Source: Nitrospirota bacterium (GTDB lineage: Bacteria > Nitrospirota > UBA9217). Taken from it: a DNA stretch of 64,000 nucleotides. The notes below the pieces were generated by a model. That model searched no databases and was not told the origin of the DNA. It saw only the letters and a program-made list of their open reading frames with translations. This document shows positions 1,903 to 38,781 of this stretch, piece by piece. How positions within the stretch are numbered: the stretch's first letter is position 1; the number at the start of each line of letters is the position of its first letter. Both the position numbers and the translations under genes were made by a program. The stretch covers positions 148,838 through 212,837 of the forward strand of contig CAWIIS010000008.1 in assembly GCA_963836175.1 (NCBI GenBank), read 5' to 3'.

Positions 1903-3194
1903 ATGAATGATTCAGATGGTATCAGGCTGCAGGAATTTTGTCAATTCAAGAAAGAGATTCGCGGTTCGACGGATTATTTGATCGTCGGTCTGGATATTGC
2001 CAAGGAACGGCATAATGCTTTCTTCGGCACGGCGACCGGCAGGACGCTGCACAAAGGGATGTTCTTTGATAATACGTACGATGGTTTCCAAAAGCTTCTG
2101 ATCCAGCGGACGCGCTCAAGGTGCAACATGGCCTGCGCAAAGTGGTTTTCGGCCTGGAACCCACGGCCAATTACCATAAACCTCTGGGAGAGTATCTCAT
2201 CAAGGGCGGACACCTGGTTGTTCTGGTATCTGCTGCTGCCACGTCAAAGAACCGTGAGCTTATGGATGGCCGATGGGATAAGCACGACACCAAGGATGCC
2301 GCGAATGTTGCCGACCTGATCGCCCTGGGGAAATGCCTGTACTACGACTGCCCGGGGGAGGATCTGCGGTCCTTGCGGGGGCTGTTGTCCTTAAAGAAAC
2401 GGCTCAAAAAAGAGGAGCACGGTCTCCGGGTCCGCATCCGCAATCAGCTTCTGGCCCAGTACTTCCCGGAGATGGACCAGCACTTCGGTTCGGTAGCGAG
2501 TCTGAACGTGGTCCAGCGATGCATGGATCCCTCGCTTATCTCCCTTATGGAATACGACGAGTTCTGCCGGACTGTATCGCCCGGCAAGGTGAATATGGCG
2601 CAGCAGCGGCGGCTTACGCAGATATGGCGGGCTGCCAAGCAGTCCATTGGCTGCATCGTCGGAGAAGCGGTGTCCGTGGAAGCACAGATCATGGTGATGG
2701 GACTTCACCAAGTCCGGGAGACGATCAAGACCGTTGAGGACAAAATCGAGGACATCTGCCTGAAGTTTCCGGAGTACTCGTTCCTTCTCATGATTCCCGG
2801 TTTCGGTCCGGATGTATCATCCAAGGTCCTGGCCGCCATCGGCGATCCCGAACGCTTTACGAACGGCAAGCAGGTCTTGAAGATGGCCGGGTTTGATCTG
2901 TGCGCGAGCCGAAGCGGAAAAACGTCAAACAGCGCCACGCCAGTGATCTCCAAACACGGAAAATCCGATCTCCGCTACGCGCTGTATCAGGCGGCGATCA
3001 TCAGTTCGCTCAACTATAAAGAGTTCATCGTCTACCACACGAATAAGATAAAGGGACGGGAGCGGGAAAAAGGGATCGGCACCAAGATGCGGGTGAAGCT
3101 GGCAGCGAAGCTTCTTATAATTGCCTGGACGCTGATGAAGAAGAAAGAACCGTTCGACCCGAAATACCTCAACCAGGGGGTTAGTAAGGCATAG
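1903..3194 (+). mobile_element. IS110-family transposase gene with one frame break near 2098-2105; element ends not resolved
   Basis: N-terminal piece (1903.. frame 1) has VGLDIAKERHNAFF (DEDD-type start). It continues in frame 3 as DPADALKVQHGLRKVVFGLEPTANYH. The C-terminus has IPGFGPDVSSKVLAAIGDPERF...SGKTSN...ISKHGKSDLR, a Transposase_20-like block. No terminal inverted repeats, as expected for IS110. Confidence 0.85.
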
Positions 3195-3518: not shown

Positions 3519-4050
3519 GCGATGATGGCTTCCCGCTCCCAGTCTTCAAGCCAGAAGTCGCGAGGGATGGGGGCGTTATGTTCGTTGGCTTTGCCGTACC
3601 GCTTGATCCAGGTGTAAAACTTGCTCTTGCTGACCGCAGCCAGGCGATGAAGCGCTTCAGCGGGATACTCCGCCTTCTCGCTCCAGGCCTTGGTGAAGTC
3701 AACAACGGCGTCGCGCGTATCATGGGGAACCCAGCCGCCGGTTAAAGCTCCCCAAGTTCTTTTTTTAGCTTGATGTGCTCCTCCATCAGTTCGGAGAGCA
3801 CTTCATGCTTTCTTGCGAAGCTTCTCTTCAAGCTGCTGGATGCGCTGGGTTTCTTCGCGCTTGGGATTCTTGTCTTGAGTGAAGGCTGCTGCTCCGTTTT
3901 CAAAAAACTGCTTCTGCCAGAGGTAGAAGATCGTTCGGCTGCAAGCTGATACTCGTCGCACAGGTCCGATACCGCGATCTGCTCGACCAGGTGACGCTTG
4001 AGGATCGAAACCTTCTCTTCGGGGGTGTAATTGTGACGCTTCTTTCGCAT
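3519..4050 (-). pseudogene. Decayed IS3-family element: orfA with two compensating frame breaks plus the first ~75 codons of orfB
   Basis: orfA reads MRKKRHNYTPEEKVSILKRHLVEQIAVSDLCDEYQL, then TIFYLWQKQFFENGAAAF...QQLEEKLRKK in another frame, then HEVLSELMEEHIKLKKELGEL. An A7G slippery run lies at 3759..3767 (minus strand). It is followed in the -1 frame by TGGWVPHDTRDAVVDF...RDFWLEDWEREAII, after which homology stops abruptly at about 3519. Confidence 0.75.
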
Positions 4051-4172
4051 GGACTTTCCTCCGTTCGTGATGGTTTATCACAAATCGGCTAAAAGTCCAA
4101 TTCACGCTGAGCCAAAACAAACGAAGCTAAAGACTGCCGATCATTCTAACAGTTCAAAAGAGAGTTATTTAA

Positions 4173-4931
4173 ATGTTTTGTGATCTCCAAGTAGAAAAAC
4201 TTATAGATGATTTTTCTACCTTGCAATCGAACCTTGAGCAGTCAATGCCAAGGCTAGCTTTATTCGAGCATTATATAATTGACAACAAGGGCGAGAAAAA
4301 ATTTAACATAACGAAAGGGATAAGGAATATTGCCTTTTTAGACAATTTTCACGCTTGTTTGTTTAGATTGCATGAATTTTGTGTAGCTGTCGAGTTCTTC
4401 CAAGGAAAAGTTAGATTTGAAAGAAAGGAGAACGATTTCCCCGAAGGTTACAAACAAAAATTATTTAGCACGATTGCGGCCGATTCATTAAGATCCGCAC
4501 TTGACATATACTCCAAATCCATAGCTTGGTTTTATGACCTCAAAAACAAAAAAGCACTCGGTTTTTCATATAAGGAATTTATAAAACCCGTAAAAGAGTT
4601 CTCCGTGCCAATCTTTAGAGAGGCTAATAGCATATATCAATCAAAACCGTATCAATTAATCAAAGATTTAAGAGATTCTGAAAAGCATTCAGGTCTTGGA
4701 AAACGTCATTTTAAGCTGGTCATCCATGATAAAAAGTTCGAAGCAGAAGTCAAAAATCCGGAGCCACTTAACTTTCAACAAATTGAAAGCGCTTGTTGTG
4801 ATCTTCTGAATTTGTTATTGAATCTAATGCATGTCTCAACAAAAGAAATTATTGCTCACAATAAAAGCTTTATTTCAAAAAATGATAAATTCGCCAAGCT
4901 CGATAACGACGGTAGGTTAATAGGTATATAG
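4173..4931 (+). CDS. Hypothetical protein in low-GC cassette; possible HEPN-like Rx4H motif
   Basis: Intact 252-aa ORF, much lower GC than surroundings. LRDSEKH (R-x4-H) lies in a predicted helical C-terminal region. No other motif recognised. Confidence 0.55.
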   Translation: MFCDLQVEKLIDDFSTLQSNLEQSMPRLALFEHYIIDNKGEKKFNITKGIRNIAFLDNFHACLFRLHEFCVAVEFFQGKVRFERKENDFPEGYKQKLFSTIAADSLRSALDIYSKSIAWFYDLKNKKALGFSYKEFIKPVKEFSVPIFREANSIYQSKPYQLIKDLRDSEKHSGLGKRHFKLVIHDKKFEAEVKNPEPLNFQQIESACCDLLNLLLNLMHVSTKEIIAHNKSFISKNDKFAKLDNDGRLIGI

Positions 4932-5067
4932 CCACAACCCTGACGCAAGAACGAAATGCATTCTGAGGTAAGACTCTAACCACGTCGAGCGAGTCGCGAA
5001 AACCACGCTCCTCACGGCGGCGTTAAGCGAGCAAAGAGGCCAAGTAAATTAATAAAAGGAGATTACG

Positions 5068-5910
5068 ATGAGAGCACAGCAAAATCAAATTATCTTTTTA
5101 TTTTTGTTCTTTGTTACTTCATTGTCCGCATTTGTAGATAAAGCTGACTGCGAGTGTATTGCAGGACCAAAGAGACCTTTTTCCTGCATAGTCATTCAAG
5201 GCCTTGATGCATGCAACCATGTCCAAGGATGCGAATTTTCAACCATTGCCGGTGCGGCATGTCTAGGTCAGATTGTTTCCTGCACAACTCATACAAATGA
5301 GACTTCATGTATCAACGATTTATGGTGCGACTGGATAATTCCGGCCTGTTCTTCTAGCCACGATTGCCCCAATGGAGGTTGTTGTAACTGGTATATGGAC
5401 GGAACCTCCAAATGTCTACCGCCCAAATGCCAGAGCAATTTTGATTGCCAAAAAGGATTTAGATGTGTCGGAACTCGTTGCGATGCTCATTGTAAAAGTA
5501 TTTTCCTTCCAGAGGGCATCTTCGATTACAAGAAAGGGCCTCTTTGTTACTCGAACGGCAAAGGTCATTATTGTTGCTATCCAGACATGGAACATTTCAA
5601 ATGCTTAACTGGTAAAAGCAATGTACCTGAGGGCACCCCGGTATATGATGTAGATGCGGATTGGAAAGATATGATTTATGATGGTGCCTGTTTATGCCAA
5701 CGCCTTCCAGAAGGCATCTTCGATTACAAGAATGGCCCTCTTTGTTACTCGAATGGCGAGGGGCATTATTGCTGTTACAAAAGCATGGAACACTTTAAGT
5801 GCTTAACTGGTGAAAGCAAAGTACCAAATGGCACTCCTGTATATGATGTAGATGCGAATTGGAAAGATATGATTTATGACGGTGCCTGTTTTTCAGAAGC
5901 ATGCCAGTAG
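5068..5910 (+). CDS. Secreted, extremely cysteine-rich protein with a tandem 66-aa duplication
   Basis: AAAGGAG RBS. N-terminal hydrophobic signal (IIFLFLFFVTSLSAF). Dense Cys spacing throughout. LPEGIFDYK.GPLCYSNG.GHYCCY..MEHFKCLTG.S.VP.GTPVYDVDA.WKDMIYDGAC occurs twice. Confidence 0.7.
   Translation: MRAQQNQIIFLFLFFVTSLSAFVDKADCECIAGPKRPFSCIVIQGLDACNHVQGCEFSTIAGAACLGQIVSCTTHTNETSCINDLWCDWIIPACSSSHDCPNGGCCNWYMDGTSKCLPPKCQSNFDCQKGFRCVGTRCDAHCKSIFLPEGIFDYKKGPLCYSNGKGHYCCYPDMEHFKCLTGKSNVPEGTPVYDVDADWKDMIYDGACLCQRLPEGIFDYKNGPLCYSNGEGHYCCYKSMEHFKCLTGESKVPNGTPVYDVDANWKDMIYDGACFSEACQ
5506..5895 (+). repeat. Tandem duplication, 2 x 198 bp, inside the Cys-rich gene
   Basis: 5506..5697 and 5704..5895 are near-identical at nucleotide level, with scattered substitutions. 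Confidence 0.85.
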
Positions 5911-6246
5911 CTGTTAGTGATTGATAGCTAAAGGCAAGACACTTGGCGAAGACACTTGATACCTGACGTGCATTATTCGAAGGACACATTTTGGGGACAG
6001 GTCTTGAAATATAAGAAAATGATTTTCCAAGACCTGACCCCAGAGGAGTGCGATACGAGGTGTAGATAAGTAGTAACACCAAAATAAAAGACCTGACACT
6101 ATGGTCCTCTATGGTCCTCTGCCCTGGAGCAATAACTGACATCATCCCTTTTGCATGGAGGGGCGGGGAAACTGTTTTCTCCTTGACAACTGTCAACCAT
6201 ATCAGGGTCACGTCTTGACCCCAGAGGTGTGACCCCAGAGGTGTTC

Positions 6247-6358: not shown

Positions 6359-9300
6359 ATGGCTGGACAAAGCAGTGAACTGTTTCGGTTTGTGTCACTT
6401 CGGGCCCGCTGCGAAGCGGCTGCCATTTCCATTTTTAAAGTATTCGAAGATGATGAAATTAAGAAGATTATTGCTGCACCCAAGAATAATGCGGAGGCAT
6501 TAACGACCGAGATCAAGAAAAACAGCCTGGTCGAACTGTCGGAGCTGCCAAATATGGCCATTGAACGCCTTCGAAAATGGGCGGAAAACAGCTTTTCCGA
6601 CTGTTCAACGAATCACAAACATACCCGGGTACGTGAAGGTGCCACGGAGGGCAGGGCGGGCCTGGTCAAACTGACCGAACTGCCCGAAATGGCCTTAAAT
6701 CGACTCCGAAAATGGGCTGAAAGTTGTTTTTCCGGGAGTTCCATCAAGCCAAATCAGGCGCGCGAGGCCGCCGAGATTGCAGCCGACGGCGCGATCGCAG
6801 CCGATATCAAGCGGGTCTGTTTATCCTGGCTTTTTATCAAGTGTGCATCGAATCAGGACCGCCTGAAGCTGTTCGATCCGAATAAGCACGCAGGATTGCG
6901 GGAACTAGAGGTATATATTCGTGACGCGGCTTTATTAAAGCATGCAACAACGAAGTCCGGGGAGCAGGACATACAGGCGTCCATTTCCATGCTGGCATCA
7001 GCGCCCGTATTCATTCCTGGCAGCGTGTCCATTCCGAAAAAACCAGAAGATAAAAAGAAGAATGACCGGCAGGCGCAGATCATGCAGATACAGACGATAC
7101 TCAAGCGTGTGCCAATCTATAAATCACTGGCAAGAGCTGCTATGGTCTTTGACAGCACTCGATCAGAGGCTGCAGATATCGAGATCGAGAAACTGTCAGC
7201 GGCTTGGCCGCTAAAAGCTGCGTCAAAGACAAAGGCAATAAAGGGCAAGAAAAGCCCGCGGCTGGCTGCCGACGATATAGCGGAAAAGATCCGGCTTGTC
7301 CGGGCATCCGCCGCGTTCGCGGATGCAGAGTACCGCAAGGAGTTTGCAGCTTCGCTTACCCCGGCCGAGCGCGACTTGCTTACAAACGTGTATGGTGGGG
7401 ACTTGGCCCATCTTCCCGGGAGCCTGTCAGCGTTTCTAGACAACCTCGAGAAAAGAAAAAATGAGGAATACAAAATCGTGCTCCTCGCAGCCCAGATGCC
7501 GGGCATACAACTGGGCAGTCGCCCCAGGATTGACTCTCGAGGAAGCGTCGGAGCCGGAAGGAGAGTCGGCTGGCCAGTTGCTCAGCCTGGGATTTGCCGA
7601 TCTCATAGTTGCCCGCGAACGAGTTGTCGAGTATGTCCCGGGGGAGATTGCCTACATTGAGAACGTTCTGCCCGGCGAAACACGCAAGCGCGTGCATACG
7701 CGTACGACCGAGACCGAAGAATTAACTGAGGTCGAGCTGACGGAAACAAGCGAGAAAGAGAAGGATCTCCAGCAGACAGACAAGGCCAGCTTCAAGCAGG
7801 AGATCGACAAGACCATCAACCAGGACCTTGCCGTCAACGCTTCGGTAAACGTTTCCGGAAAATACGGGGCGGTGGAGGTAACGGCGAGCGCCAGCGCCCA
7901 GTATTCGTTGAGCATGAACGAGTCACGCAAATCCGCCTCTGAATTCGCTCAGGAAATTGTCACCCGATCGGTCGAGAAAACCGCGCGCTCTCAGCGGGAA
8001 CTCCGCAGGCAGCGGCGCCTGGAGCGTGTTGAAGAGACGAACGAACACGGTCTTCAGGGACAGAGTGCGCCCTACAGCGCAGTATACCGATGGGTCGACA
8101 AAATTCACGAGATAGAACTCAGGCAATACGGGAAACGTCTGATGATCGAAACGATTCTCCCCGACCCGGGGTATTTCCTGCGCGAGCTCATGCAAGTGGA
8201 CAAGGACCCACTCGATCTTGCGCCGCCTCCGTCATTTAACGTAGTGGCCGACCCAGAAACCCTGGAAGGCAATCTGCCTACTTTGGTAAAGGTATATTGT
8301 GCCGAGGGCGTTCAGCCTCCGCCTGCCCTGCATAAAATCGTTGGAGCAAACTACTCGGCAACCGCGGTAGACGGGTCGTCCGGCGGAAGCATTACGATTC
8401 CCGAGGGCTATCGTCCGGTCAGGGGTAATGTTCTGGTGACCGGCGGCAAAGGCGACGATACGTTCGATATGTTCGTGAGCGTTGGCGACAAGGTTGTTAT
8501 AAATCGTTATGTCGATCCTGACGACTTCGATGGCAGCACGACCTCGAGGAACTATGGCCGGAAGTTTCTCCTGGACAACTGTTATGCGGCCGAACCGAGC
8601 ATCCCTTACGCAATCCGCCTTTCAGGTCTGCATGCGAATTGCGGTGCGGTCAGCATCGAGGTGGTGACCGAGCGCACGAACGAAGCATACCAGCGCTGGG
8701 CTCTCGAGACGTGGGAAAAGCTCTACCAGGCGCATAGCAAGCTGGTGGAACAATACGAAGATAGAAAACGGCGTCTCGAACTGAAACAGACGGAAAAAGC
8801 GAAAGGAGCATCTCCCCAGGACGGCGGAAACCCGCTGCAGAATCGCGGCCGCGAGAAAGCGGAGCTCAAGAAGTGGGCAATCTCGCTTATGAGAAGAAAG
8901 ACTACGCATTTTGACGTGTTGTCCGATGAAGGCCTGGCGCTCGGGAGGCTTGCGTGGGCCAGGAAAGTCATCTCCTTCTTTGAAGTGGCGCTGGAATGGG
9001 AACAGATGAGCTATTTCCTGTATCCTTATTTTTGGGAAGACCAAACACTCGCTTGGAAACAGAAAATGGCTATACGGAACTTCGACGATCAATTCCAGCA
9101 GTTCCTGACGGCCGGTTCCTGCCGCCTTCTGGTGCCCGTTACCGCGGGCTATGAACAGCGGCTGCTCCATTACCTCACGTCCCCCGATGCCGGGACTGCG
9201 GGCGAGGAGAGCCTGCTTGACTGGATCCCGCCACATGACGAAACAGGCCGGGAGGATACGCCTCCCCTCGACGGGCTCGAAGAGCAGTTGGCAAACGTCT

Positions 9301-9641
9301 GGACCGAGGTAGTTAAGACCAGGAATCGGGACCTCGTCACCGGTAGCGGGACCCTGAAGGTGGTCGCCGACAGCGATCTTGTTGAGGTAAATGCCGACAG
9401 TCTCTGGGTGCTTGATCCGCAGATCGACGTGAGCCGCGAAGTCTTCATCAACGGGCTGCGGTATGAAATCATGAAAGTGGAGACGGATACGCAGTTCCAA
9501 ATCGATTGCCCCTTTGAATTGGATTCCAATGATAACGCAAATTACCTGATCGGCAGCGTTCGATTCGGCGCGCCGTGGCGGGTAAAACTCCCGACGTCAC
9601 TAGTCGTGATAGCATCCGAGGCGGACAAGCTCAAAGTCTGA
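6359..9641 (+). CDS. Large (~1090 aa) protein of unknown function, one frame break near 7500-7515
   Basis: ORF pieces 6359..7660 (frame 2) and 7461..9641 (frame 3) overlap. Sensible sequence switches from ...EYKIVLLAAQMPGIQLG to AVAPGLTLEEASEPEGES.... A 27-aa segment is duplicated (LVELSELPNMAIERLRKWAENSFSDCS / LVKLTELPEMALNRLRKWAESCFSGSS). Central block: LGFADLIVARERVVEYVPGEIAYIENVLPGE ... YRWVDKIHEIELRQYGKRLMIETILPDP. No Walker A or other catalytic motif seen. Confidence 0.6.
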
Positions 9642-9662
9642 TCTGCCAGAAGGAAAAGAACG

Positions 9663-11264
9663 ATGGCTAATTTACGGGTACTCTACATCGATGCAGGCGG
9701 GTGGTACGGCGGCCAAAAGAATTTAGCCGGCAAAGACTTGGATCCATTGTTCCCCACCACTACATTTGTTCTGATTGCCCATGACAGCGTAGCCCTCTGT
9801 TCCTTCAATCACATTCCGGGAGGGTGGAGGTGGTCGGGTCCATCCCTTACTCCAGGGGAAATGACGTCAGTTACGAGGAGAGGGTCCGGACTGTGGATGG
9901 AAAACTGGATATTCAAATTCCTTGATACGATGATGGGGACCAAGCTGGGAAAGCAGCTCCCGCAGCCAGACCTGATCGGGCTCCACCAGCATATTCTCAA
10001 TTTTGAACGGTTTGCCCCCGGGACATTCTTTGAAGCAACCGGCCCGAAAAAGCTCGTGGTGCTGATCCCCGACCTGCACCTCTCCTATTTCAAGGACAGC
10101 GCGCTGGACAATTTTGTTACAGATTATGAAGAAGTCAGACTGAGGGGCCGGCATCGTGACGAGTACGCATTCGCTCGTCTGAAAAAGCGACGCTCGCTCG
10201 AGATCGAATTTGGTCAGTTTTTGGAAACAATATCGATTTTAAGTAAAGCCAATCCAAAAAGCATCGAAGTCTCATTTCTGGGAGACGTATACGAACTCTG
10301 GGAAACCCGTGCAATGGCAAGATGGTTCCAGAATTACAAGCCAGACAATGAACAGAATTTGATAGCACTGCTGCGGACAGTGAACGATATAATAAATCCG
10401 CTGGTAAAGGCAGTCAATCCGGCAGCAGCATTAGACTTGAACGATTACGCGGGCCGGTTTTCTGCATCGTTGGGCCATTACCAAGGCATTCTGTATAACC
10501 CCGACATTTTGAACACGGCCTTGAATCCTATCCAGGCAGACGTTGCCCAATTGATTGCCTCCAGCCACAAGGGGGAGAACGGGAAGACATTTCTCGACTA
10601 TTTCAATGAGATGTTCAGCAATCCGTTGCCCTTCGGGGCCGGATCGCCGCTTGGAGCGACGTGGCGTATAATCGGGAATCACGATAATCTGCTGGTGAAC
10701 GACACGAGTATTCTTGGATACAATTTCATACCGAAACCGTTCAATGTGGACGAGTTCGGCAAGTATCCCGAAAGGGGGGCTGATATGCAAAGAAATGGCC
10801 GAACCCCCTTTTTATATCTGGAGCGGCGATTCAACAGGTCACTCATCTGGGGCCTACATGGACACGAGTTGGATAATTTCAATAAAAACTCATCCTGCGG
10901 CCTGGGCTATTATCTTACGTTTCTTAATGCGCTGAGTGAAGTCAAGGGGCTTGGCGACGAGATCAAAGCGTTTGAACCTTCTCTTATCCCGCCTGAGGTC
11001 AACAGAAAAGCGTACACGACAAAGTATCTGACCTTGCTTGCACAAAAAGAACGAGATCTCGACAGTCTGCGTGTGGTCCTGCTTATCCAAGCCCATACCC
11101 ACAAGCATCATTGGGAAGATTTGAGCTCCAGATTCGAACAGGAGCGCAGCGACTTGCGACGTAGCCAGCCGGACGATCGGTATCTCAAGCTGAACGATCT
11201 GGGCAAGATCGTGCAGAACCAGCTGAAATCAGCGGCAGAAGAATGGCTTTATGATCCTACTTAG
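9663..11264 (+). CDS. Calcineurin-like metallophosphoesterase with a ~130-aa unknown N-terminal domain
   Basis: Ordered motifs: IPDLHL (DxH), LGDVYELWE (GD..), IGNHDN (GNHD), LHGHE, AHTHKH (GHxH-like). Starts 21 nt after the upstream large gene. GGAAAAGAA-type RBS. Confidence 0.75.
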   Translation: MANLRVLYIDAGGWYGGQKNLAGKDLDPLFPTTTFVLIAHDSVALCSFNHIPGGWRWSGPSLTPGEMTSVTRRGSGLWMENWIFKFLDTMMGTKLGKQLPQPDLIGLHQHILNFERFAPGTFFEATGPKKLVVLIPDLHLSYFKDSALDNFVTDYEEVRLRGRHRDEYAFARLKKRRSLEIEFGQFLETISILSKANPKSIEVSFLGDVYELWETRAMARWFQNYKPDNEQNLIALLRTVNDIINPLVKAVNPAAALDLNDYAGRFSASLGHYQGILYNPDILNTALNPIQADVAQLIASSHKGENGKTFLDYFNEMFSNPLPFGAGSPLGATWRIIGNHDNLLVNDTSILGYNFIPKPFNVDEFGKYPERGADMQRNGRTPFLYLERRFNRSLIWGLHGHELDNFNKNSSCGLGYYLTFLNALSEVKGLGDEIKAFEPSLIPPEVNRKAYTTKYLTLLAQKERDLDSLRVVLLIQAHTHKHHWEDLSSRFEQERSDLRRSQPDDRYLKLNDLGKIVQNQLKSAAEEWLYDPT

Positions 11265-11576: not shown

Positions 11577-11882
11577 TTACACGATGTCTTCGAGATGACG
11601 TGATCCATGAAGAACACAGTGTATTTCGACGAGGGGACCCCGTACCTTATAGAAAACGAGATAGGCTTCAATGACGAGCACACGATAGCCGGAGGCCTGA
11701 AGTTTATCGTGTTTCGGGATGCGGCCGGGAAAAGGGTGCGTTGCAAGACGGGCGATTCGTTTGTCAAATTTATCCGTAAAGGAAGCGGCCCGTGCGGGAC
11801 TGTCTGCCGCGATCCAGTCCGAGATGGAGAGAAGATCGTCAACGGCAATGGGAAGATAGCGGATAACGTATTTATCCGGCAT
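11577..11882 (-). CDS. ParE/RelE-superfamily type II toxin
   Basis: 101 aa, overlaps the upstream antitoxin gene by 11 nt. Typical ParE-like layout (YLPIAVDDLLSISDWIA...RFTDKFDKRIARLATHPFPGR...YRVLVIEAYLVFYKV). Confidence 0.8.
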   Translation of the reverse strand: MPDKYVIRYLPIAVDDLLSISDWIAADSPARAASFTDKFDKRIARLATHPFPGRIPKHDKLQASGYRVLVIEAYLVFYKVRGPLVEIHCVLHGSRHLEDIV

Positions 11883-12141
11883 GGCTGCGCTGCCGAAGTT
11901 TCTGCATCACCTGCGCATGGGTAATGCCCTTTTCTCCGGACGCGGCCTGCGACTGGGCCACGGCAAGCTTTTCGAAAAGGTCTAACCTGGCGTTCAGCTT
12001 TTCAAAGTGTTCAATGCTCATGACAACCAGGTCACCCTCTCCATTGGTGGTGAGGTAGACCGGTTCATCCTGGTCATGGCAGATCGATGCAATCTCGCGT
12101 GTTTTGTTACGAAGGCTTGATATGGGTTTAATGATCGGCAT
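11872..12141 (-). CDS. Phd/YefM-family antitoxin
   Basis: 89 aa. MPIIKPISSLRNKTREIASICHDQDEPVYLTTNGEGDLVVMSIEHFEKL is a classical Phd/YefM N-terminus. Sits upstream of and overlaps the toxin. Confidence 0.85.
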   Translation of the reverse strand: MPIIKPISSLRNKTREIASICHDQDEPVYLTTNGEGDLVVMSIEHFEKLNARLDLFEKLAVAQSQAASGEKGITHAQVMQKLRQRSHAG

Positions 12142-17446: not shown

Positions 17447-20410
17447 ATGAAAAAAGTTTTTCTGTTTGTGATTCTTGCCTGCTGGTTGCCGTCGATCCCG
17501 GCTTTTGCCCAGCAGGCACCCTATGGGCTCCCTCCGGGGTACATGGAAAAGCTCAAAGAAATGCTGCCCCCGGGGACGCAACTTCCCGCGGAAATGGGCG
17601 GGGACGATACAGCCGGGAGCTTCGGGAAACCAAAGCCTTTGATCGACCTGCCTCACGTCCAGGAGACCCGGTACAAACCCCAGCCTTCCTCTTCAGATAC
17701 CCAGTCGCCCTTCGGCTCCGGCAGAACACCGGAACAGAAAGCCGCCGCAATCGCCGCAATCAATGCGGAACTTGATGCAAAGCCCTACATCCTTCCCATC
17801 AAGGCATATGCACCGGCGAAAAGCGAGATCCTGAAGCTCGCCAAGGAGCTCAACACAGAGGCGAAAAAGAAATTCGCGCCCGATGAACTGGCCGCATACG
17901 CACAGACCGTCACCTGGATGCCCCGTTTCGACGGCCTTCAACTCGATCCGAAGAAAGCCACCCAGTATTCGATCCTGGTTTCCACCGCCACCAACTACTT
18001 CACGCGGCCCCGTTACATTGTTGCCCTGGCAACTGCCGTCTTTTCCCTTGATCCGCAAGGCGCCGTGAGCGCCAATAATCTGGCTTCCGCTGTCGTTTCA
18101 GCGGGGGAGCGGCTCGGTTCCGATGCCAGGGCGCTTGCCACGGCCCGCAAGCAGGCAGAAGCCGTGTACGCCTATACCCTGGCAAATTCCCTGGAAGATG
18201 GCGCATGGAAGGAGAAGAGCTTCACGCCGATCCTGAACCTGGGATACCTGTACATCGATATGGGCAGGCCCGACGAGGCATGCTCGCTTTTCCGGGTGGC
18301 GCGCAAATTGAAACCCTTTTCCTGGGACGCGGCCCAGGGGCTTGCAGCATATTTTATCGCCATAGGCCAGCGCGATAAAGCAAAGGCAGTGCTGGAGGAC
18401 GAGAATCTTGACAAGCCGGCCATGCTGATGGTCGCGAAAAAGTCGGCCAAGCTCCTTGAAAAGAGCGATCCCTTCGGCGATATGCCCCTGGACGCGCCCG
18501 AGGAACGCTACAAGGAAGGCATCGAAATCATGAACTCGGAGCCGATCGCAACGGCCGCGGATTTCATTGGCCAGCTGGACCAGAGCGAACGGAACAAGAT
18601 GCGGCATTTCATCGAAAATCTGCCGCCCAAGGGGAGCTTTAACGCGCCTTCCATCACCAAGGTATCCCAGTACTCGAACGTCCAGGCCATCTCGTCGCCG
18701 CAGGGCGTGGGCGGGCTCAAGGAGTTCGCCGAGATGGTCGGCATGTACACCGCCTCAGGATCGGCATCCATCGTGAAAAACCAGATGGAAATGCTGAGCC
18801 GTATGGGGCTGAACATCGATCCGGGGGTGGACCTCGATGACCTTGCCCGGCATCCCGAAAAATACGAAGGGAAAGAGATCGAGACCAGGGTCACCGGCAA
18901 GGAGAAGTTCAAGGCCAATATGCAGGCAATGGCCGACCAGGCGAAATCCGCCAAGCGGGAAACGAAACCGGGCCAGGCTTCCGCCCTGACCGCCATGGTG
19001 AGCACCATAGATCCCTTTTTCACGATACTGCAGATAGAGCCTGAAAAATACGCCGATCCCATGAATGTCGCGATCCAGAAGCATAACTTTGCCGTGCATA
19101 ACCGCAAGACGAACCTCTACAACGGCTATCTCTTCACCGTCAACAAGCAGACCTACAGCGCCGTGCTGGACGTATTCAGGCTGTACGTGGCCAAGCTCGG
19201 GCCGCTTGCTCAACAGAGGGAGGCGGAACTGGAGGCGCTGGAAGAGCAGCTCCAGGGGGCCATGGACGCCATATCGCAGCTCAAGCGGCATGCGGTCCAC
19301 GCGAAATATTTTGAGATGAAGAACAACGCGACCCAGGTTGCGTACGCAAATGCCACGAACGTGTCGTCGGTCGCCTATGTCCAGAAGATAAAGCCGACCG
19401 TGGAAGCCTACTATTACGACGTGATCCGGCATGTTGCCATGATCAGCGACCCCGGGATCAGGAAACAGAAGGACCTGGAGCTGAAAAGTTCGGTCAATGG
19501 AGCGCTCATGTGGGCGCTGCAGACCGTGCTCGTGGCCCATGGCTCGTACTCCTACGACGATGAGTGGGACTGCGACTGCGACATCGAGGCCCTGCTCCGT
19601 CAGCGGGACGCCGAGCAGGCAGCGCTCGACGCGTTGGAGAACGAGCGCATCGCGCGGAACAAGGCCGCCAAAAAAATGTTCGACTCGGGGGAGATCCCTG
19701 AATCGTCGCCGTTGTTCAAGAAGCTCGATGCCTTCGGCACGGACCTCAGCATACCGTTCATCCCGTTTTTGAGCGGAAGGATCTCCTGCGCCCGCACCGT
19801 GGTCAGGCTCGATACCGATGCCTTGCCCATCCCGGGTATTGCAAAGCTTTTCGGGTCCATGTCCAGGAGCGAAAATACCGGGGCTGCCACGTATGCCGGC
19901 GGCGTGGAGGTCGGTCTTTCCGCGGAGGCCGGGGCCGCGAGCGCCGACGCAACGCTCAGCTTGTCCGGCTCGGTGTCCACGGACGGCAACGGGAATGTGC
20001 GGGATTACTCGGTCACACCCGCCACCAGTCTCTCGGTCAGCGTCGGAGACGTGAAGGCATCGCTTGACGCTCAGGTGACGGTCGGGCGCGGTAGTGACGG
20101 CAACGCGACCGTCAGGGATTACTCCATGACCGCCGGCGCTGAATATTCAACTGAGGTCGCGAGCGCCGACGTAAGTGTCGGCGGGAAAATGACCTTCGGC
20201 CCCAACGGACTGGATTCAGACTTCACCGCAGGCATCAGCAAGGATATAAAGACCGGATACAAGCCGGGCAAAGGCTCGCTCGAGGCTTCAACAAAAAAGA
20301 GAGGTTGTTCGGTGTCGACAGAGGTCACCAGCAGTTTCCTGCAAACGGCGCAGGACGTGGCGGACCAGTGGCACGTGAAGGAAATCTGGTCCGGGGAGTT
20401 CAAGATCTGA
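17447..20410 (+). CDS. Large secreted protein (987 aa), TPR-like region, unknown function
   Basis: Intact ORF. Signal MKKVFLFVILACWLPSIPAFAQQ. TPR-like helices around LNLGYLYIDMGRPDEACSLFRVARKLKP. Beta-rich repetitive C-terminus. Confidence 0.7.
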   Translation: MKKVFLFVILACWLPSIPAFAQQAPYGLPPGYMEKLKEMLPPGTQLPAEMGGDDTAGSFGKPKPLIDLPHVQETRYKPQPSSSDTQSPFGSGRTPEQKAAAIAAINAELDAKPYILPIKAYAPAKSEILKLAKELNTEAKKKFAPDELAAYAQTVTWMPRFDGLQLDPKKATQYSILVSTATNYFTRPRYIVALATAVFSLDPQGAVSANNLASAVVSAGERLGSDARALATARKQAEAVYAYTLANSLEDGAWKEKSFTPILNLGYLYIDMGRPDEACSLFRVARKLKPFSWDAAQGLAAYFIAIGQRDKAKAVLEDENLDKPAMLMVAKKSAKLLEKSDPFGDMPLDAPEERYKEGIEIMNSEPIATAADFIGQLDQSERNKMRHFIENLPPKGSFNAPSITKVSQYSNVQAISSPQGVGGLKEFAEMVGMYTASGSASIVKNQMEMLSRMGLNIDPGVDLDDLARHPEKYEGKEIETRVTGKEKFKANMQAMADQAKSAKRETKPGQASALTAMVSTIDPFFTILQIEPEKYADPMNVAIQKHNFAVHNRKTNLYNGYLFTVNKQTYSAVLDVFRLYVAKLGPLAQQREAELEALEEQLQGAMDAISQLKRHAVHAKYFEMKNNATQVAYANATNVSSVAYVQKIKPTVEAYYYDVIRHVAMISDPGIRKQKDLELKSSVNGALMWALQTVLVAHGSYSYDDEWDCDCDIEALLRQRDAEQAALDALENERIARNKAAKKMFDSGEIPESSPLFKKLDAFGTDLSIPFIPFLSGRISCARTVVRLDTDALPIPGIAKLFGSMSRSENTGAATYAGGVEVGLSAEAGAASADATLSLSGSVSTDGNGNVRDYSVTPATSLSVSVGDVKASLDAQVTVGRGSDGNATVRDYSMTAGAEYSTEVASADVSVGGKMTFGPNGLDSDFTAGISKDIKTGYKPGKGSLEASTKKRGCSVSTEVTSSFLQTAQDVADQWHVKEIWSGEFKI

Positions 20411-21944: not shown

Positions 21945-23847
21945 ATGGAAAAGTCTATTGACAGTGCTACACTCTCTGCGTTAAAGACCGCGGAGACGTC
22001 GGGGATCAAGACCGTCTGGGACCGGTACGAAGCGCAGAAGCCGCAGTGCGGGTTCGGCGAGACCGGCCTGTGCTGCAGGAACTGCATGCAGGGGCCCTGC
22101 AGGATCGATCCCTTCGGCGAGGGGCCCCAGACCGGCGTCTGCGGAGCGAACGCGGATGTGATGGTCGCGCGCTGGGTTGCCGGGCCGTGGCGGCAGGCAC
22201 GGCATCGCACGGCGGCCACGCCAAGCACCTGGCCCACACGCTGCTGAAATCGGCCAACGGCGAGGCCGCCGATTATCCGATCAAGGACGAGGCCAAGCTC
22301 AGGGCGGTCGCCGCCGGATCGGCGTGACCGGCGGCGACGTGAAGACGCTCGCGCGGAACGTGGCCCTGAAGGCGCTGGAGGAATTCTCCGAGAAGGAGTC
22401 CCCGCTCACCTGGGCGGCCTCCACCGTGACCAAGGGCCGCGTGGACACCTTCGTGAAGCTCGGCGTGGTGCCCACGGGCATCGACAGCGTGGTGGCGGAG
22501 TCCATGCACCGGACGACCTACGGCGTCGACGCCGATCCGGTGAACCTGCTGCTCGGCGCGATCAAATGCGCCCTGGCCGACTATGCGGGGTGCCATCTGG
22601 CCACGGACCTTGCGGACATCCTCTTCGGCACGCCGCAGCCCGCGGTGACGAGCGCGAACCTCGGGGTGCTCAAGAAGAACGCCGTGAACATCGCCGTGCA
22701 CGGCCACAACCCGCTCCTCTCCGACATGATCGCGCAGGTGGCGGACGATAAAGGAGCTGAACGACAAGGCCAGGGCTGCCGGCGCTTCGGAAGGGATCAA
22801 CGTCGTCGGCGTCTGCTGCACCGGGAACGAAGTGATGATGCGCCACAAGATCCCGCTGGCAACAAGCTCCGTGTCCCAGGAGACCGCGATCCTGACCGGC
22901 GCCCTGGACGCCATGGTCGTCGACTACCAGTGCATCATGCCCTCCCTCGCGAACGTGGCCGAGTGCTATCACACCAAGCTCATCACCACCATGTCCATCG
23001 CAAAGATACCCGAAGGCCATGCATATCGAGTTCCAGGAGGCGAACGCCCGGGAATCGGCAGCGAAGATCATCCTCGCCGCGATCGAAGCGTTCAAGAAGC
23101 GCGACCCGAAGAAGATCAACATCCCCGACGATCTCAAGCCCGGCGATCGTCGGGTTCTCCACCGAGACGATCGTGGGCGCCCTCGCGAAGGTGAACAAGG
23201 AGGACCCGCTCAAGCCGCTCATCGACAACATCGTTTCCGGCAACATCTACGGCGTCTGCCTGTTTGCCGGGTGCAATACCGTCAAGGTCACGCAGGACGC
23301 GAACTATGTCGCGATGATCAAGGAACTGGCGAAGAACAACGTGCTGATCCTGGCAACGGGCTGCGCCTCCGGCGCCTTTGCGCGCCACGGGTTCATGACG
23401 CCCGAGGCGACGAACAAGTACGCCGGGCCGGGGCTCAAGGCCGTGCTCACGGCGGTGGGACAGGCCGCGGGCCTGGGCGGGCCGCTGCCGCTGGTGCTCC
23501 ATATGGGCTCCTGCGTGGACAATTCGCGGGCCGCGGACGTGGCGGTTGCGGTGGCGAACAAGCTCGGCGTGGACCTGAACAAGCTCCCGGTCGTTGCTTC
23601 GGCGCCCGAGGCGGTGACGGAAAAGGCCGTGGCCATCGGCACGTGGGCCGTGGCAGCGGGGCTGCCGACCCATCTCGGCGTGGTGCCGCCCGTGCTCGGC
23701 AGCAAGGTGGTGACCCAGGTGCTCACGTCGACGGCAAAGGACCTCTTCGGCGGCTAGTTCATCGTGGAGCCCGATCCGGTCAAAGCGTCAGGACAGCTGC
23801 TTGCAGCCATGGCCGAGCGCCGCAAAGGCCTCGGGCTCTCGGCATAG
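21945..23847 (+). CDS. cooS: Anaerobic Ni-Fe carbon monoxide dehydrogenase catalytic subunit, about 6 frame breaks plus an in-frame TAG at 23755
   Basis: N-terminus QCGFGETGLCCRNCMQGPCRI...GVCGANAD. Pieces in ORFs 21945.., 22046.., 22177.., 22832.., 23019.. together give a continuous CooS-like sequence. The C-terminal ...DLFGG-TAG-FIVEPDPVKA...RRKGLGL still looks CooS-like. Confidence 0.85.
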
Positions 23848-23856
23848 GAGGACGAC

Positions 23857-24354
23857 ATGGACCAGATATTCGTGAAACCGGAAAAGTGCATGGGCTGCAG
23901 AAGCTGCGAGATCGCCTGCGCGGTCCAGCATTCGAAAGACAAGAACCTGTTTTCCGCCGTGCTCCAGTCGCCGCCGCCGATGAAGCGGCTCTTCGTGGAG
24001 GCAGCCGACGGCATCAGGATGCCGGTCCTCTGCAGGCACTGCGAGGATGCGCCGTGCCTGAACGCCTGCATCAGCGGCTGTCTCTACCGGGACGACAAGA
24101 AGTTCGTGCGCAGGAGGAAAGAGCGCTGCATCGGGTGCTGGTCCTGCGTCATGGCCTGCCCCTTCGGCGTGATTTCCCGGGACAGGGAGAAGCACATCGC
24201 GGTAAAATGCGACCGTTGCCATAAGCTCGATGTCCCGGCCTGCGTGAACGCCTGCCCTACGCGGGCGCTCGTCCTGGCCGAGGTGGACCGGATGTCGGAG
24301 GAAAAGCGGCAGAAGGTCGTGTTCGCCGAAACAGCAGGCGCGGGCCGGCCATAA
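23857..24354 (+). CDS. cooF: CooF-like 4Fe-4S ferredoxin
   Basis: Intact, with multiple CxxCxxCxxxCP clusters (CMGCRSCEIAC, CRHCEDAPC, CIGCWSCVMACP, CDRC...CVNACP). Sits directly after cooS. Confidence 0.8.
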   Translation: MDQIFVKPEKCMGCRSCEIACAVQHSKDKNLFSAVLQSPPPMKRLFVEAADGIRMPVLCRHCEDAPCLNACISGCLYRDDKKFVRRRKERCIGCWSCVMACPFGVISRDREKHIAVKCDRCHKLDVPACVNACPTRALVLAEVDRMSEEKRQKVVFAETAGAGRP

Positions 24355-24368
24355 CAGAGGAGGACAGC

Positions 24369-25624
24369 ATGCGTTACGTGATCATAGGCGGCAGCATTGC
24401 GGGGGTCTCCGCGGCACAGGCCATTCGCGAGCAGGACAGCGCCGCCGACATCAGGGTGATCTCAGGAGAAAAGTCCGGCCCGTACTACCGGCCCGTCATT
24501 CCCGTATCTTATCAGCGGGCAGAAGAGCGAGCGCGAGATCTTCTATCCCGAGGACCCGCTCACGGGGAAGGACATCGCCTCAGTCCTCGGGACCGCGATC
24601 GGGGTGGATGCGAAGAAGAAGGAGGTCCTGCTTGCGTCAGGGGAGCGGCTGTCCTACGATGCCCTCCTGCTTGCCACCGGCAGCGTCCCGCTGAAACCGC
24701 CGATCCCCGGGATGGACGGGGAGGGCGTGTATCCGCTCAGGAACATGGACCAGGCAGGTCAGGATCCGCGATGCCGCGAAGGCCGCGGGGAGCGCCGTGG
24801 TCATCGGCGGCGGCCTGGTGGGGATCAAGGCCGCCCTTGCCCTGCGGGAGCGGAGCCGGTCTCAAGGGAACGGGCCCGCGGGAGGTGACCGTCGTCGAGA
24901 TGCTTCCGGAGATCCTGAGCGGGCGGCTCGACCGGCGCGGCAGCCGGATCATCCGGGACGCCGTGGAACGGGAAGGCGTCACGGTGCTCACGAACAGGGG
25001 CGTGGCGAAGGTCGTCCGCGACGCAAGGGAAGCCGTGACTCGGGTGCAGCTCAGCTCCGGCGGGACGCTCAAGGCGGACCTCGTCATCGTTGCGGCGGGC
25101 GTTCGGCCGAACATCTCCTGTCTCAAGGGGTCGGGCGTGCAGGACCAACAAAGGCGTTCTGGTGGATGGGTCGCTCCGGACGAACGTTGCCGGGATCTAC
25201 GCGGCCGGCGACGTGGTGGAAGGCAGGGAACTGCTGAGCGACAAGAACGCCGTGAGCGGGCTCTGGGGGAATGCCGTCGAGATGGGCCGCGCCGCAGGCA
25301 TGAACATGGCGGGCGGAAAGGTGAACTATCCCGGGTTCCTCTCGGTGATGAACGCCTCGGAGATAGCGGGCGTTCCCTTTGTCTCCGTCGGGCTCATTGA
25401 CGCCGAAGGGAAAGAAGTACAGAACGACCTCGCACGACGACGGGAAGAGCTACTGGAAGCTGGTGTTCGAGGGAGATTTCCTGGTCGGCGCGGTCTTTGT
25501 CGGCGACCTGAAGAACGCGGGGCTTTACACCGCCCTGATAAAGAACCATGTCCCGATCACCCGGTTCAGAGACAGGATCGAGCGGAGGACCGCTTCGTAT
25601 CCGGACCTGCTTGTCGCGGGGTGA
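24369..25624 (+). CDS. FAD/NAD(P)-dependent pyridine nucleotide-disulfide oxidoreductase (CODH-associated flavoprotein), about 4-5 frame breaks
   Basis: MRYVIIGGSIAGVSAA dinucleotide fold. Second Rossmann motif VVIGGGLVGIKAAL. YAAGDVVE. Pieces are in ORFs 24369.., 24604.., 24797.., 25090.., 25379... Confidence 0.7.
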
Positions 25625-35584: not shown

Positions 35585-36011
35585 TAAACTAGAAAAGCGT
35601 TTAGCCGCAGATTTCGCAGATGGACGCAGATTTTTACCTGCCGTCGAAAAAGTCCCACTTGGCCGTCATTGCGAGGAGCTTTAGCGACGAAGCAATCTCG
35701 AAGTGGTTTTTTCGTAAATCGAGATTGCTTCGCTTTGCTCGCAAAGACTGCAAAAGACTTTTTTAGTTATCTATTTAAAAAAATAATCTGCGAAAATCTG
35801 CGTTTATCTGCGGCCAAAGTTTTTAGTACCTGAGGTTTCCACGCACCCGAACGACAAGACCGACCGTCGCTTCCTCCAGCTCGAACACGAATATCCGGAC
35901 CAATTCACTCCTTATAGCTCAGAATACCCCCATTTAACGCGGTGATTTAAAGTATCAGTTTATTTTGCCCTGATTTTACGCCTCTTTAACAGTCATTTAT
36001 TACTAAAGTAT

Positions 36012-38674: not shown

Positions 38675-38781
38675 CATCGTACTGCGGAATACAAGATACA
38701 TTCACAATAATGGTCCGGAGGCACTGTTGAACGATCTCTCCCGGTATCGCAGTTTGAAAAGACCATATGCATCGACACCAG

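Follow-up and report, generated by a model that had tools for sequence, protein, structure and literature searches.

We analysed a 64,000-nucleotide (nt) stretch of DNA from a Nitrospirota bacterium (contig CAWIIS010000008.1, positions 148,838 to 212,837 of the forward strand; hereafter the window) and report here on a pair of genes at 6359-11264 of that window. The first, the big gene, belongs to a family of large proteins (the big proteins), and the second encodes its partner, a predicted metallophosphoesterase. Comparison with related loci shows a constant large protein followed by a swappable enzyme. The features of the pair are listed below; residue numbers of the big protein are those of its 3' open reading frame (ORF).

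6359-7660, plus strand: 5' ORF of the big gene, 433 aa, with the variable N-terminal region; it begins with a family motif (ELFRFVSLR)
6527-6607 and 6662-6742, plus strand: two copies of a 27-residue repeat, LVELSELPNMAIERLRKWAENSFSDCS and LVKLTELPEMALNRLRKWAESCFSGSS, read from the translation
7440-7539, plus strand: frameshift interval, between the frame-0 stop and the onset of homology
7461-9641, plus strand: 3' ORF of the big gene, 726 aa, with the conserved core and the C-terminal part
7587-7679, plus strand: signature block LGxADL...Y..GEIA(H/Y)IENVL.GE, here LGFADLIVARERVVEYVPGEIAYIENVLPGE, in the first long beta-strands of the core
7827-7898, plus strand: amphipathic beta-hairpin, residues 123-146, from column hydropathy over 113 sequences
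8085-8168, plus strand: YRWVDK...ILPDP block, from the sequence
8331-8675, plus strand: jelly-roll beta-sandwich, residues about 291-405, poorly conserved, resembling lectin domains, carbohydrate-binding modules (CBMs) and receptor-binding domains
8994-9041, plus strand: aromatic block EWEQMSYFLYPYFWED, better conserved than any other motif of the C-terminal alpha/beta domain
9354-9614, plus strand: small beta domain at the C-terminus, residues about 632-718, confined to the window-like subfamily
9642-9662, plus strand: 21-nt spacer between the genes, with the ribosome-binding site GAAGGA at 9649-9654
9663-11264, plus strand: partner gene, 533 aa, calcineurin-type metallophosphoesterase of a very rare family
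9663-10037, plus strand: N-domain of the partner, residues 1-125, conserved within the small phosphoesterase family
10071-10079, plus strand: phosphoesterase motif I, DLH (D137-L-H139)
10281-10295, plus strand: phosphoesterase motif II, GD..E (G207-D208)
10674-10688, plus strand: phosphoesterase motif III, GNHDN (G338, N339-H340-D341)
10857-10865, plus strand: phosphoesterase motif IV, HGH (H399-G-H401)
11094-11102, plus strand: phosphoesterase motif V, HTH (A477, H478-T-H480)

The preliminary description of this DNA had read the big gene as encoding a protein of about 1090 aa. As given, the window sequence does not encode the big protein in one frame: the interval 6359-9641 is 3283 nt long (3 x 1094 + 1) and holds two ORFs in different frames, of 433 and 726 aa, that are joined only across a +1 frameshift. 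Homologues retrieved with the 3' ORF are single proteins, mostly of 900-1180 aa, and the 3' ORF shares about 35% identity with single-ORF homologues of 1030-1142 aa. The consensus N-terminus of the homologues, LFRF...R, equals the start of the 5' ORF (MAGQSSELFRFVSLR), and a strong Shine-Dalgarno sequence (GGGAGGTG) lies 5' of that ORF. In a family hidden Markov model (HMM) built without the window sequence, residues 4-351 of the 5' ORF aligned with model positions 5-306 (E 3.6e-11) and the 3' ORF with positions 354-955 (E 2e-165). Because both ORFs match successive parts of one family HMM, they are one family gene with a +1 frameshift. The 5' ORF is genuine up to about residue 360-385, and its remainder is out-of-frame read-through. 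The frame-0 stop lies at 7437-7439 and family homology resumes near 7539 (residue 26-27 of the 3' ORF); the candidate homopolymers are A6 at 7457-7462 and C4 at 7522-7525, and the exact position is not fixable, the closest homologues being only about 35% identical at that place.

The family is large. A profile search of 1.84 billion representative proteins returned 5,007 clusters at E <= 1e-3 and 3,201 at E <= 1e-30 (counted at 50% identity), nearly all of 900-1150 aa and matched end to end. In a scan that took one genome per species, at least 534 family loci turned up, in Actinomycetota, Pseudomonadota, Bacteroidota, Cyanobacteria, Chloroflexota, Acidobacteriota, Bacillota, Planctomycetota and Myxococcota, together with the archaeon Methanoperedens. 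The earlier placing of the signature block in large uncharacterised proteins of actinobacteria and cyanobacteria was thus correct, and the block extends to many other phyla. Plasmids carry copies in Bacillus thuringiensis HD-771 (p01, with the intact pair WP_000344219/WP_000007501), Sinorhizobium, Tsukamurella, Streptomyces and the haloarchaeon Natronorubrum, and all plasmid copies that we inspected are annotated in RefSeq as "hypothetical protein". The family-defining motifs are LFRF..R, GEIA(H/Y)IENVL, the SG.YG hairpin, Y.WV.K...YG.R, FEW..M.Y..YPYFW and PW.V..PT.LV. The whole set is found in the two window ORFs, with the partner 21 nt 3' of them.

Neither the sequence of the big protein nor the family profiles matched any entry of Pfam, NCBIfam, PADLOC or PDB. 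P-loop, SMC and ABC families (Pfam and NCBIfam) were absent from the window big protein and 35 homologues. PHROG gave no match for the 3' ORF or the phosphoesterase and only a chance-level one for the 5' ORF (E 0.063), and a tblastn search of 50,697 phage genomes found no relatives of the big protein. A match of the large protein to a well-known structural family, such as a phage structural protein, would have refuted the preliminary description; none was found by tblastn or, outside the jelly-roll domain described below, by Foldseek in PDB and BFVD. No published description of the family was found in the searchable literature; it appears to be undescribed, is unnamed, and is unrelated to any known carrier or sensor.

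The AlphaFold2 (AF2) model of the 3' ORF, made from a 70-sequence alignment, had a mean predicted local distance difference test score (pLDDT) of 74.7. All four sequence blocks quoted in the preliminary description are present, and all lie in this ORF. The modelled core begins with two very long strands at residues 40-69 and 73-88. Within the signature block, Y58, I66, E67 and N68 are invariant in a 35-sequence alignment, and G44, D47, L48, L70 and E73 are nearly so. An insert of low confidence follows at residues 89-182 (pLDDT < 50 at residues 83-150 and 170-190), comprising a helix, a short hairpin and a helix, after which the model has further long strands at 183-198 and 205-234. The hairpin consists of two strands, each of about nine residues in which polar and apolar positions strictly alternate, around a turn (G/A)(S/K)YG(P), in which Y135 and G136 are nearly invariant. 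Of the earlier suggestion of a membrane-inserting hairpin, the conserved amphipathic hairpin held across 113 sequences; this pattern is compatible with membrane insertion and is no proof of it.

Of the whole model, only the jelly-roll found structural neighbours by Foldseek in PDB and BFVD. These were capsid proteins, CBMs, lectins and phage receptor-binding proteins, all with a query-normalised TM-score (TMq) <= 0.14, and the BFVD matches span only about 150 residues of the jelly-roll. Foldseek rows for a Cry1 protoxin had a probability of 0.12-0.41 and a root-mean-square deviation above 30, and were treated as noise. Long helices at residues 407-477 then lead into a highly conserved alpha/beta domain with FEW..M.Y..YPYFW, whose aromatic block has W513 and Y523 invariant and F511, E512, Y521, P522 and W525 nearly invariant. 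The small beta domain terminates in the family-wide PW.V..PT.LV (W706 and T712 invariant in smaller alignments), and residues beyond 700 are conserved in only 14/57 loci with a complete partner. At the other end, the big proteins vary most in their N-terminal 350 residues. In the window this variable region carries the two repeat copies, 45 residues apart, with the consensus L-V-x-L-(S/T)-E-L-P-x-M-A-(I/L)-x-R-L-R-K-W-A-E-(N/S)-..-F-S, and in one family member it contains a chitin-binding CBM_5_12 domain.

The partner gene follows as previously described, after a 21-nt spacer. It has its own ribosome-binding site, with GAAGGA standing 8 nt 5' of the ATG, and we found no terminator-like site between the big gene and the partner. 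It had been credited with five calcineurin-type motifs and an extra N-domain, and the alignment bears out both: the catalytic residues of the five motifs are invariant in all four members of the phosphoesterase family, in which the N-domain is also conserved. Like other calcineurin-like phosphoesterases (PF00149; Mre11/SbcD, LpxH and CpdA types), the window partner has all five motifs in the canonical order, and its motif II, LGDVYELWE, we take to resemble the GDLFE.W of LpxH-type enzymes. It differs from typical PF00149 enzymes in its 125-residue N-domain, in the few loci at which it occurs, and in its long inserts, a long, helical one of about 125 residues between motifs II and III and one of about 75 residues between motifs IV and V. 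The window phosphoesterase had no Pfam match even at E <= 10, and its homologue P0037 scored 19.0 bits against the Metallophos cut-off of 21.5. The relative at L106 scored 26.5 bits against 21.5, above the gathering score and over the full profile, and the window phosphoesterase aligned with L106 through all five motifs (BLASTP E 9e-13). By such transitive homology only, the window partner is assigned to the genuine calcineurin-type metallophosphoesterases (PF00149). The fold of this superfamily is a four-layer alpha/beta sandwich; there was no PDB sequence match to the phosphoesterase, and its AF2 model, from a 4-sequence alignment, was unusable (mean pLDDT 40.5). The family is rare: an index of 5.8 billion proteins holds only three homologues, a second search with the 4-sequence profile added no new members, and a metagenome scan gave eight loci, which makes about 10 loci worldwide in all.

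We then compared 80 loci: 71 of 80 loci of the genome scan, those with a callable ORF, eight further loci and the window. A same-strand gene lies within 210 nt 3' of the big gene in 60 of the 80, at a median gap of 13.5 nt (<= 60 nt in 49/60, overlapping in 10). Thus, the big gene and its downstream gene are arranged as an operon. The downstream genes, on the other hand, fall in 26 unrelated clusters. PT-TG proteins of about 615 aa are the most frequent (11 loci), followed by patatins (9 locus records on 8 distinct contigs, plus Natronorubrum), a family of about 770 aa of unknown function ("MGDISRHRDIF"; 7 loci), vertebrate-type arginine deiminases (PAD; 4 loci), LodA lysine oxidases (3 loci), PhoD-like proteins (2 loci) and a 975-aa protein with an OmpA C-terminal domain (2 loci). 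Other partners include PLD, PT-TG with CdiA_C, Amidase_3 with SPOR, and many orphans. Different partner families stand behind big proteins that are 60-73% identical to each other. Indeed, the idea that the phosphoesterase always stands behind the large gene did not hold, as this arrangement occurs at only three known loci and the partner position is hypervariable. The pairing of the big gene with a downstream gene exceeds chance, and both the family and the gene pairing recur in hundreds of genomes.

No conserved third gene, upstream or second downstream, was found across the loci. The 150 flanking proteins from about 65 loci fell in 111 Pfam families, none of them in more than 3 loci; the most frequent was DAO (count 3), which we assume to represent LodB-like flavoproteins beside LodA. 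Because no neighbouring gene or flank family recurs, the unit is exactly two genes and autonomous. Several single loci have neighbours of their own. In Tenacibaculum (L007, 14615-15458), the big gene is closely followed by genes for a CHAP peptidase and a phage-type holin and preceded by one for an S24 LexA-like peptidase; these genes may be a lysis-type release module or a prophage remnant. The Natronorubrum plasmid (L095, 3282-8337) encodes a 1147-aa big protein, a 71-aa ORF and a patatin-like phospholipase. At L004 (9673-10011), a 112-aa Trypco1 protein is encoded directly 5' of the big gene; L016 and L034 have close copies of it (85% and 69% identity) some 1.2 kb 5' of the match. Trypco1 (trypsin-co-occurring domain 1) has otherwise been described in NTP-dependent conflict systems (PMC7159879).

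The partners share a feature at their C-termini. In a count covering the partners of L013-L092 and of L093, L094 and L096, 25 of 57 complete partners (44%) ended in proline, compared with 7.9% of other ORFs at the same loci (Fisher p 1.3e-11). The terminal proline spans at least eight unrelated partner families, and three independently annotated plasmid partners also end in proline. It was found in 24/43 partners of the major big-protein subfamily and in 1/14 of the window-like subfamily (p 0.0015); the window phosphoesterase itself ends in ...YDPT, without a terminal proline. Because the proline frequency co-varies with the C-terminal type of the big protein, these counts suggest that the terminal proline may be a docking signal read by the C-terminal region of the big protein. 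The signal thereby hints at a testable docking code.

The relatives of the phosphoesterase stand in two kinds of loci. At L105 the gene order is ClpV - VgrG - LysM/PG_binding_1 - phosphoesterase - PAAR, and L001 has the same ClpV/VgrG/PAAR-type core of a type VI secretion system (T6SS), with the phosphoesterase between VgrG and PAAR. The phosphoesterase of L106 has TssK nearby, and that of L107 a PAAR protein. At L101 and L104, on the other hand, the homologue is encoded directly 3' of proteins of 1139 and 936 aa, distant homologues of the big family (by hhalign over 225 core columns, with a probability of 96.75% and E 3e-10) that also have collinear matches to the YPYFW-equivalent and FL.AGAARV.VPVRPG motifs. 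The expected co-occurrence of the two gene families in other genomes was therefore found in these two further loci, and, with the window, the phosphoesterase stands behind a big-family gene in only three known loci. Taken together, the results show that a single rare enzyme family occurs now at cargo positions of T6SS, now as the partner in this cassette. A 210-aa protein with LysM and PG_binding_1 domains is always encoded directly 5' of the T6SS-linked phosphoesterases (L001, L098, L105) and could be an adaptor, a co-effector or an immunity candidate; its gene is absent from the window.

From these observations we see an even chance that the pair is a stand-alone cassette in which a conserved carrier or translocator serves an exchangeable toxic enzyme. 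In this cassette, the partner would be the toxic effector and the big protein the invariant carrier or translocator, comparable to the B component of binary toxins or to a VgrG platform. The variable N-terminal region and the jelly-roll domain would select the target surface, the beta-rich core with its amphipathic hairpin would engage the membrane, and the conserved C-terminal half would hold the enzyme; in the window, the phosphoesterase would, once in the target, hydrolyse some phosphoester substrate. Both proteins lack a signal peptide, so they would have to leave the cell through lysis or by some other non-classical pathway. An outward direction is favoured by the vocabulary of the partners (PT-TG, CdiA_C, LodA, PAD, lipases and cell-wall-binding domains), by the phosphoesterase family shared with T6SS, and by the CBM insertion, the variable jelly-roll and the haloarchaeal patatin partner. 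The membrane lipids of archaea are ether-linked and could not be attacked by a phospholipase A, so the haloarchaeal patatin hints at a target outside its own cell. The modelled hairpin, conserved and amphipathic, likewise hints at an outward-facing role. A more far-reaching reading, in which we have clearly less confidence, is that the big proteins would form a new class of binary-toxin B component in bacteria and archaea, a self-contained toxin delivery device in need of no dedicated secretion system. Such a device would bind leaderless enzymes that can replace one another, recognising them in the major subfamily by a C-terminal helix-plus-proline tag, and would bring them up to target-cell membranes or through them. 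The window phosphoesterase would then be one cargo, shared with T6SS.

The logic of a constant module with swappable effectors is already known from polymorphic toxins, T6SS and defence systems. T6SS spike and cargo loci (VgrG/PAAR) likewise place an exchangeable leaderless enzyme, as a separate gene, after a conserved large protein; the phosphoesterase family is found between VgrG and PAAR (L001, L105) and beside TssK (L106), and patatin, PLD and PT-TG effector types are common to T6SS and the cassette. The big protein, however, resembles VgrG, gp27 and gp5 in neither sequence nor fold, its family occurs in Gram-positives and archaea, which lack T6SS, and T6SS genes are neither present in the window nor recurrent in the other flanks. 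Binary A-B toxins (B components of the anthrax protective antigen (PA), C2 and iota type) offer an analogy only: they too combine a separate binding and translocation protein with an enzyme, and the big protein has a long-strand beta core flanking a labile, amphipathic, Ser/Gly-rich hairpin, and a variable putative binding domain. Toxin B components of this kind carry a secretion signal and form heptameric or octameric pre-pores. No homology to PA or Binary_toxB was detected (Pfam, PDB sequence, Foldseek beyond the jelly-roll), and the cassette differs from these toxins in its lack of a signal peptide and its far greater partner diversity.

Polymorphic toxins reuse the same toxin vocabulary (PT-TG, CdiA_C, patatin, PLD) with a constant module, and the distribution of the cassette is likewise patchy, which suggests horizontal mobility. 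Unlike in polymorphic toxins, the toxin of the cassette is a separate polypeptide instead of a C-terminal fusion, no consistent cognate immunity gene accompanies it, and the PT-TG partner cluster is conserved over its full length, with no variable tip. Neither PT-TG nor LodA nor calcineurin-type partners appear in the description of polymorphic toxin systems by Zhang et al. 2012 (PMC3482391); elsewhere, PT-TG is known as a domain of toxins of T6SS, the type VII secretion system and contact-dependent inhibition (CDI) (PMC13483458).

Around the pair, the window contains mobile elements and a toxin-antitoxin module. The preliminary description had placed the pair between insertion sequence (IS) remnants on one side and ParE/Phd on the other; IS110 and an IS3 orfA were found on the one side, and Pfam identified ParE and Phd on the other.

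1903-3194: IS110 transposase, split
3742-4050, minus strand: IS3 orfA remnant
11577-11882, minus strand: ParE, by Pfam
11872-12141, minus strand: Phd, by Pfam

Three other proteins of the window deserve mention. A 252-aa ORF at 4173-4931 (plus strand), in a low-GC (40%) patch, scored 26.6 bits with HEPN_Cthe2314, just under the Pfam cut-off of 27.1; it may be a stand-alone HEPN RNase or toxin beside the cassette. At 5068-5910 (plus strand), a 280-aa cysteine-rich protein with a signal peptide and no Pfam match has two near-identical C-terminal repeats (LPEGIFDYK(K/N)GPLCYSNG(K/E)GHYCCY...). At 17447-20410 (plus strand), a 987-aa secreted protein with TPR repeats, unrelated to the big family, has a Ser/Ala/Gly/Thr-rich alternating stretch over its last 150 residues or so (..LSAEAGAASADATLSLSGSVSTDGNGN..), which recalls beta-barrel or amphipathic beta repeats.

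Several points weigh against an outward-directed cassette. A crude hydropathy test found signal-peptide-like N-termini in only 1/80 big proteins and 3/60 partners. Neither the flank survey in general nor the window links the cassette to genes for secretion, lysis or T6SS, and the whole 64 kb shows no similarity to VgrG, ClpV, PAAR or TssK; a direct tie to T6SS was seen only for the phosphoesterase family. No consistent immunity-sized ORF follows the PT-TG partners, and no consistent immunity gene follows the partners as a whole, which argues against classical interbacterial toxins. By eye, the partners share no N-terminal tag. The Foldseek matches (PDB, BFVD) include no pore-forming-toxin or translocator fold, and the hairpin, with its short, charged arms of about nine residues and its conserved tip in a region of low confidence, fits an ordinary surface hairpin equally well. 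Defence-type genes lie at some loci: the HEPN-like ORF and ParE/Phd in the window, HipA, Dcm-Vsr-HATPase and Mrr at L011, AbiEii at L008 and DUF4238 at L109. Finally, if the frameshift were real, this copy would be inactive.

The alternative that survives best is an anti-phage or abortive-infection (Abi) system, in which the big protein would be an intracellular sensor that activates or releases the downstream enzyme to kill or arrest the infected cell, the partners being swapped suicide effectors. We regard this as possible, though doubtful. It is typical of defence systems in general to swap effectors within two-gene cassettes, and the patatin and PLD partners, the lack of signal peptides and immunity genes, the IS elements, HEPN-like ORF and ParE/Phd of the window, the defence-type genes just named at other loci and the Trypco1 genes 5' of the big gene in L004, L016 and L034 would all fit it. 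The cassette also resembles effector-swapping anti-phage systems such as the cyclic-oligonucleotide-based anti-phage signalling system (CBASS) with its CapV patatin, Lamassu and Avs, which join a constant component to interchangeable patatin, PLD and phosphoesterase-type effectors, likewise without signal peptides, and some cassette loci lie in islands rich in defence and toxin-antitoxin genes. The big protein, however, has no nucleotide-binding, cyclase, SMC or STAND module, and PADLOC-DB v2.0 models returned zero families at E <= 0.1 for all three ORFs. Of the earlier proposal of a module in a defence island, the two-gene module proved real, but neither of its proteins matched a PADLOC-DB model and no defence family recurred among the 150 flanking proteins, in a survey unsuited to measuring island enrichment. 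The analysis thus gave no specific support to a defence island, and the range of partners and the T6SS link of the phosphoesterase family speak at least as strongly for exported toxins. PT-TG, CdiA_C, LodA, PAD and the OmpA C-terminal domain characterise exported toxins, and several of the partner types are not known as Abi effectors. The phosphoesterase family in T6SS cargo positions, the patatin partner in a haloarchaeon and the CBM_5_12 domain in one big protein also speak against an intracellular suicide system.

It is also conceivable, but unlikely, that the frameshift is real and that this copy is a pseudogene in decay among the remains of mobile elements, the module being idle in the organism. 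The broken reading frame of the big gene, the broken IS110 and IS3 genes nearby and the low-GC foreign patch at 4001-6000 would agree with decay. However, neither half of the big gene has internal stops and each still fits the family model with a good score; the partner ORF, too, is uninterrupted and retains every catalytic motif. Moreover, the class II ribonucleotide reductase of the window is split over at least three frames, with fragments (three ORFs in three frames) that match residues 124-247, 384-445 and 481-639 of PDB 1xje. Because this housekeeping gene is broken in the same way, assembly indel errors are the simpler explanation, and the frameshift in the big gene is probably one of them; we think it quite likely that the gene is intact in the organism. 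Frame-broken stretches lie at 22177-24224, 24369-25400, 32886-35592, 36313-38730 and, in the split IS110 transposase gene, 1903-3194. By eye, the first three of these look like frame-broken translations of a CO-dehydrogenase-like protein, an FAD oxidoreductase and a UPF0182-like membrane protein. The assembly of the window thus appears indel-rich, and ORF-based readings of it need frameshift tolerance.

Far less probable is a cargo-loading shell, in which the big protein would self-assemble like an encapsulin or capsid around an enzyme recruited by a C-terminal docking tag. Small viral capsid proteins are among the best structural neighbours of the jelly-roll, and the terminal proline of 44% of the partners, which co-varies with the C-terminal type of the big protein, could serve as such a tag. 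The jelly-roll matches are generic, however, and include CBMs and lectins, no encapsulin or HK97 fold was matched, the cargo repertoire is toxin-like and not metabolic, and the window partner lacks the terminal proline. Least credible of all is a nuclease pair of the SbcCD/Mre11-Rad50 type or a prophage structural protein with an adjacent phosphatase: the partner shares the motifs of the Mre11/SbcD superfamily and the big protein has long helices at 407-477, but, in agreement with the preliminary description, we reject SbcCD, as no P-loop, ABC or SMC match was found and unrelated enzymes hold the partner position elsewhere, so that it is not conserved as a nuclease, and we reject a phage structural protein in view of the empty tblastn search, BFVD matches limited to the jelly-roll and the PHROG result given above.

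A family of thousands of clusters, ranging from Streptomyces and B. thuringiensis plasmids to cyanobacteria, Vibrio and haloarchaea, thus stands without a name, a domain model or a structure. Its constant gene with an ever-changing toxic enzyme is among the clearest genomic signatures of a conflict system, and the rare effector family common to T6SS loci and the cassette provides a direct experimental handle. There is a substantial chance that the cassette is a new delivery principle. If outward delivery is true, it would be a new principle of toxin delivery; if the cassette acts by suicide on infection, it would be a new family of immune systems. Either outcome would give a context to dozens of orphan enzyme families, among them the phosphoesterase, the "MGDISRHRDIF" family and the non-canonical PT-TG proteins.

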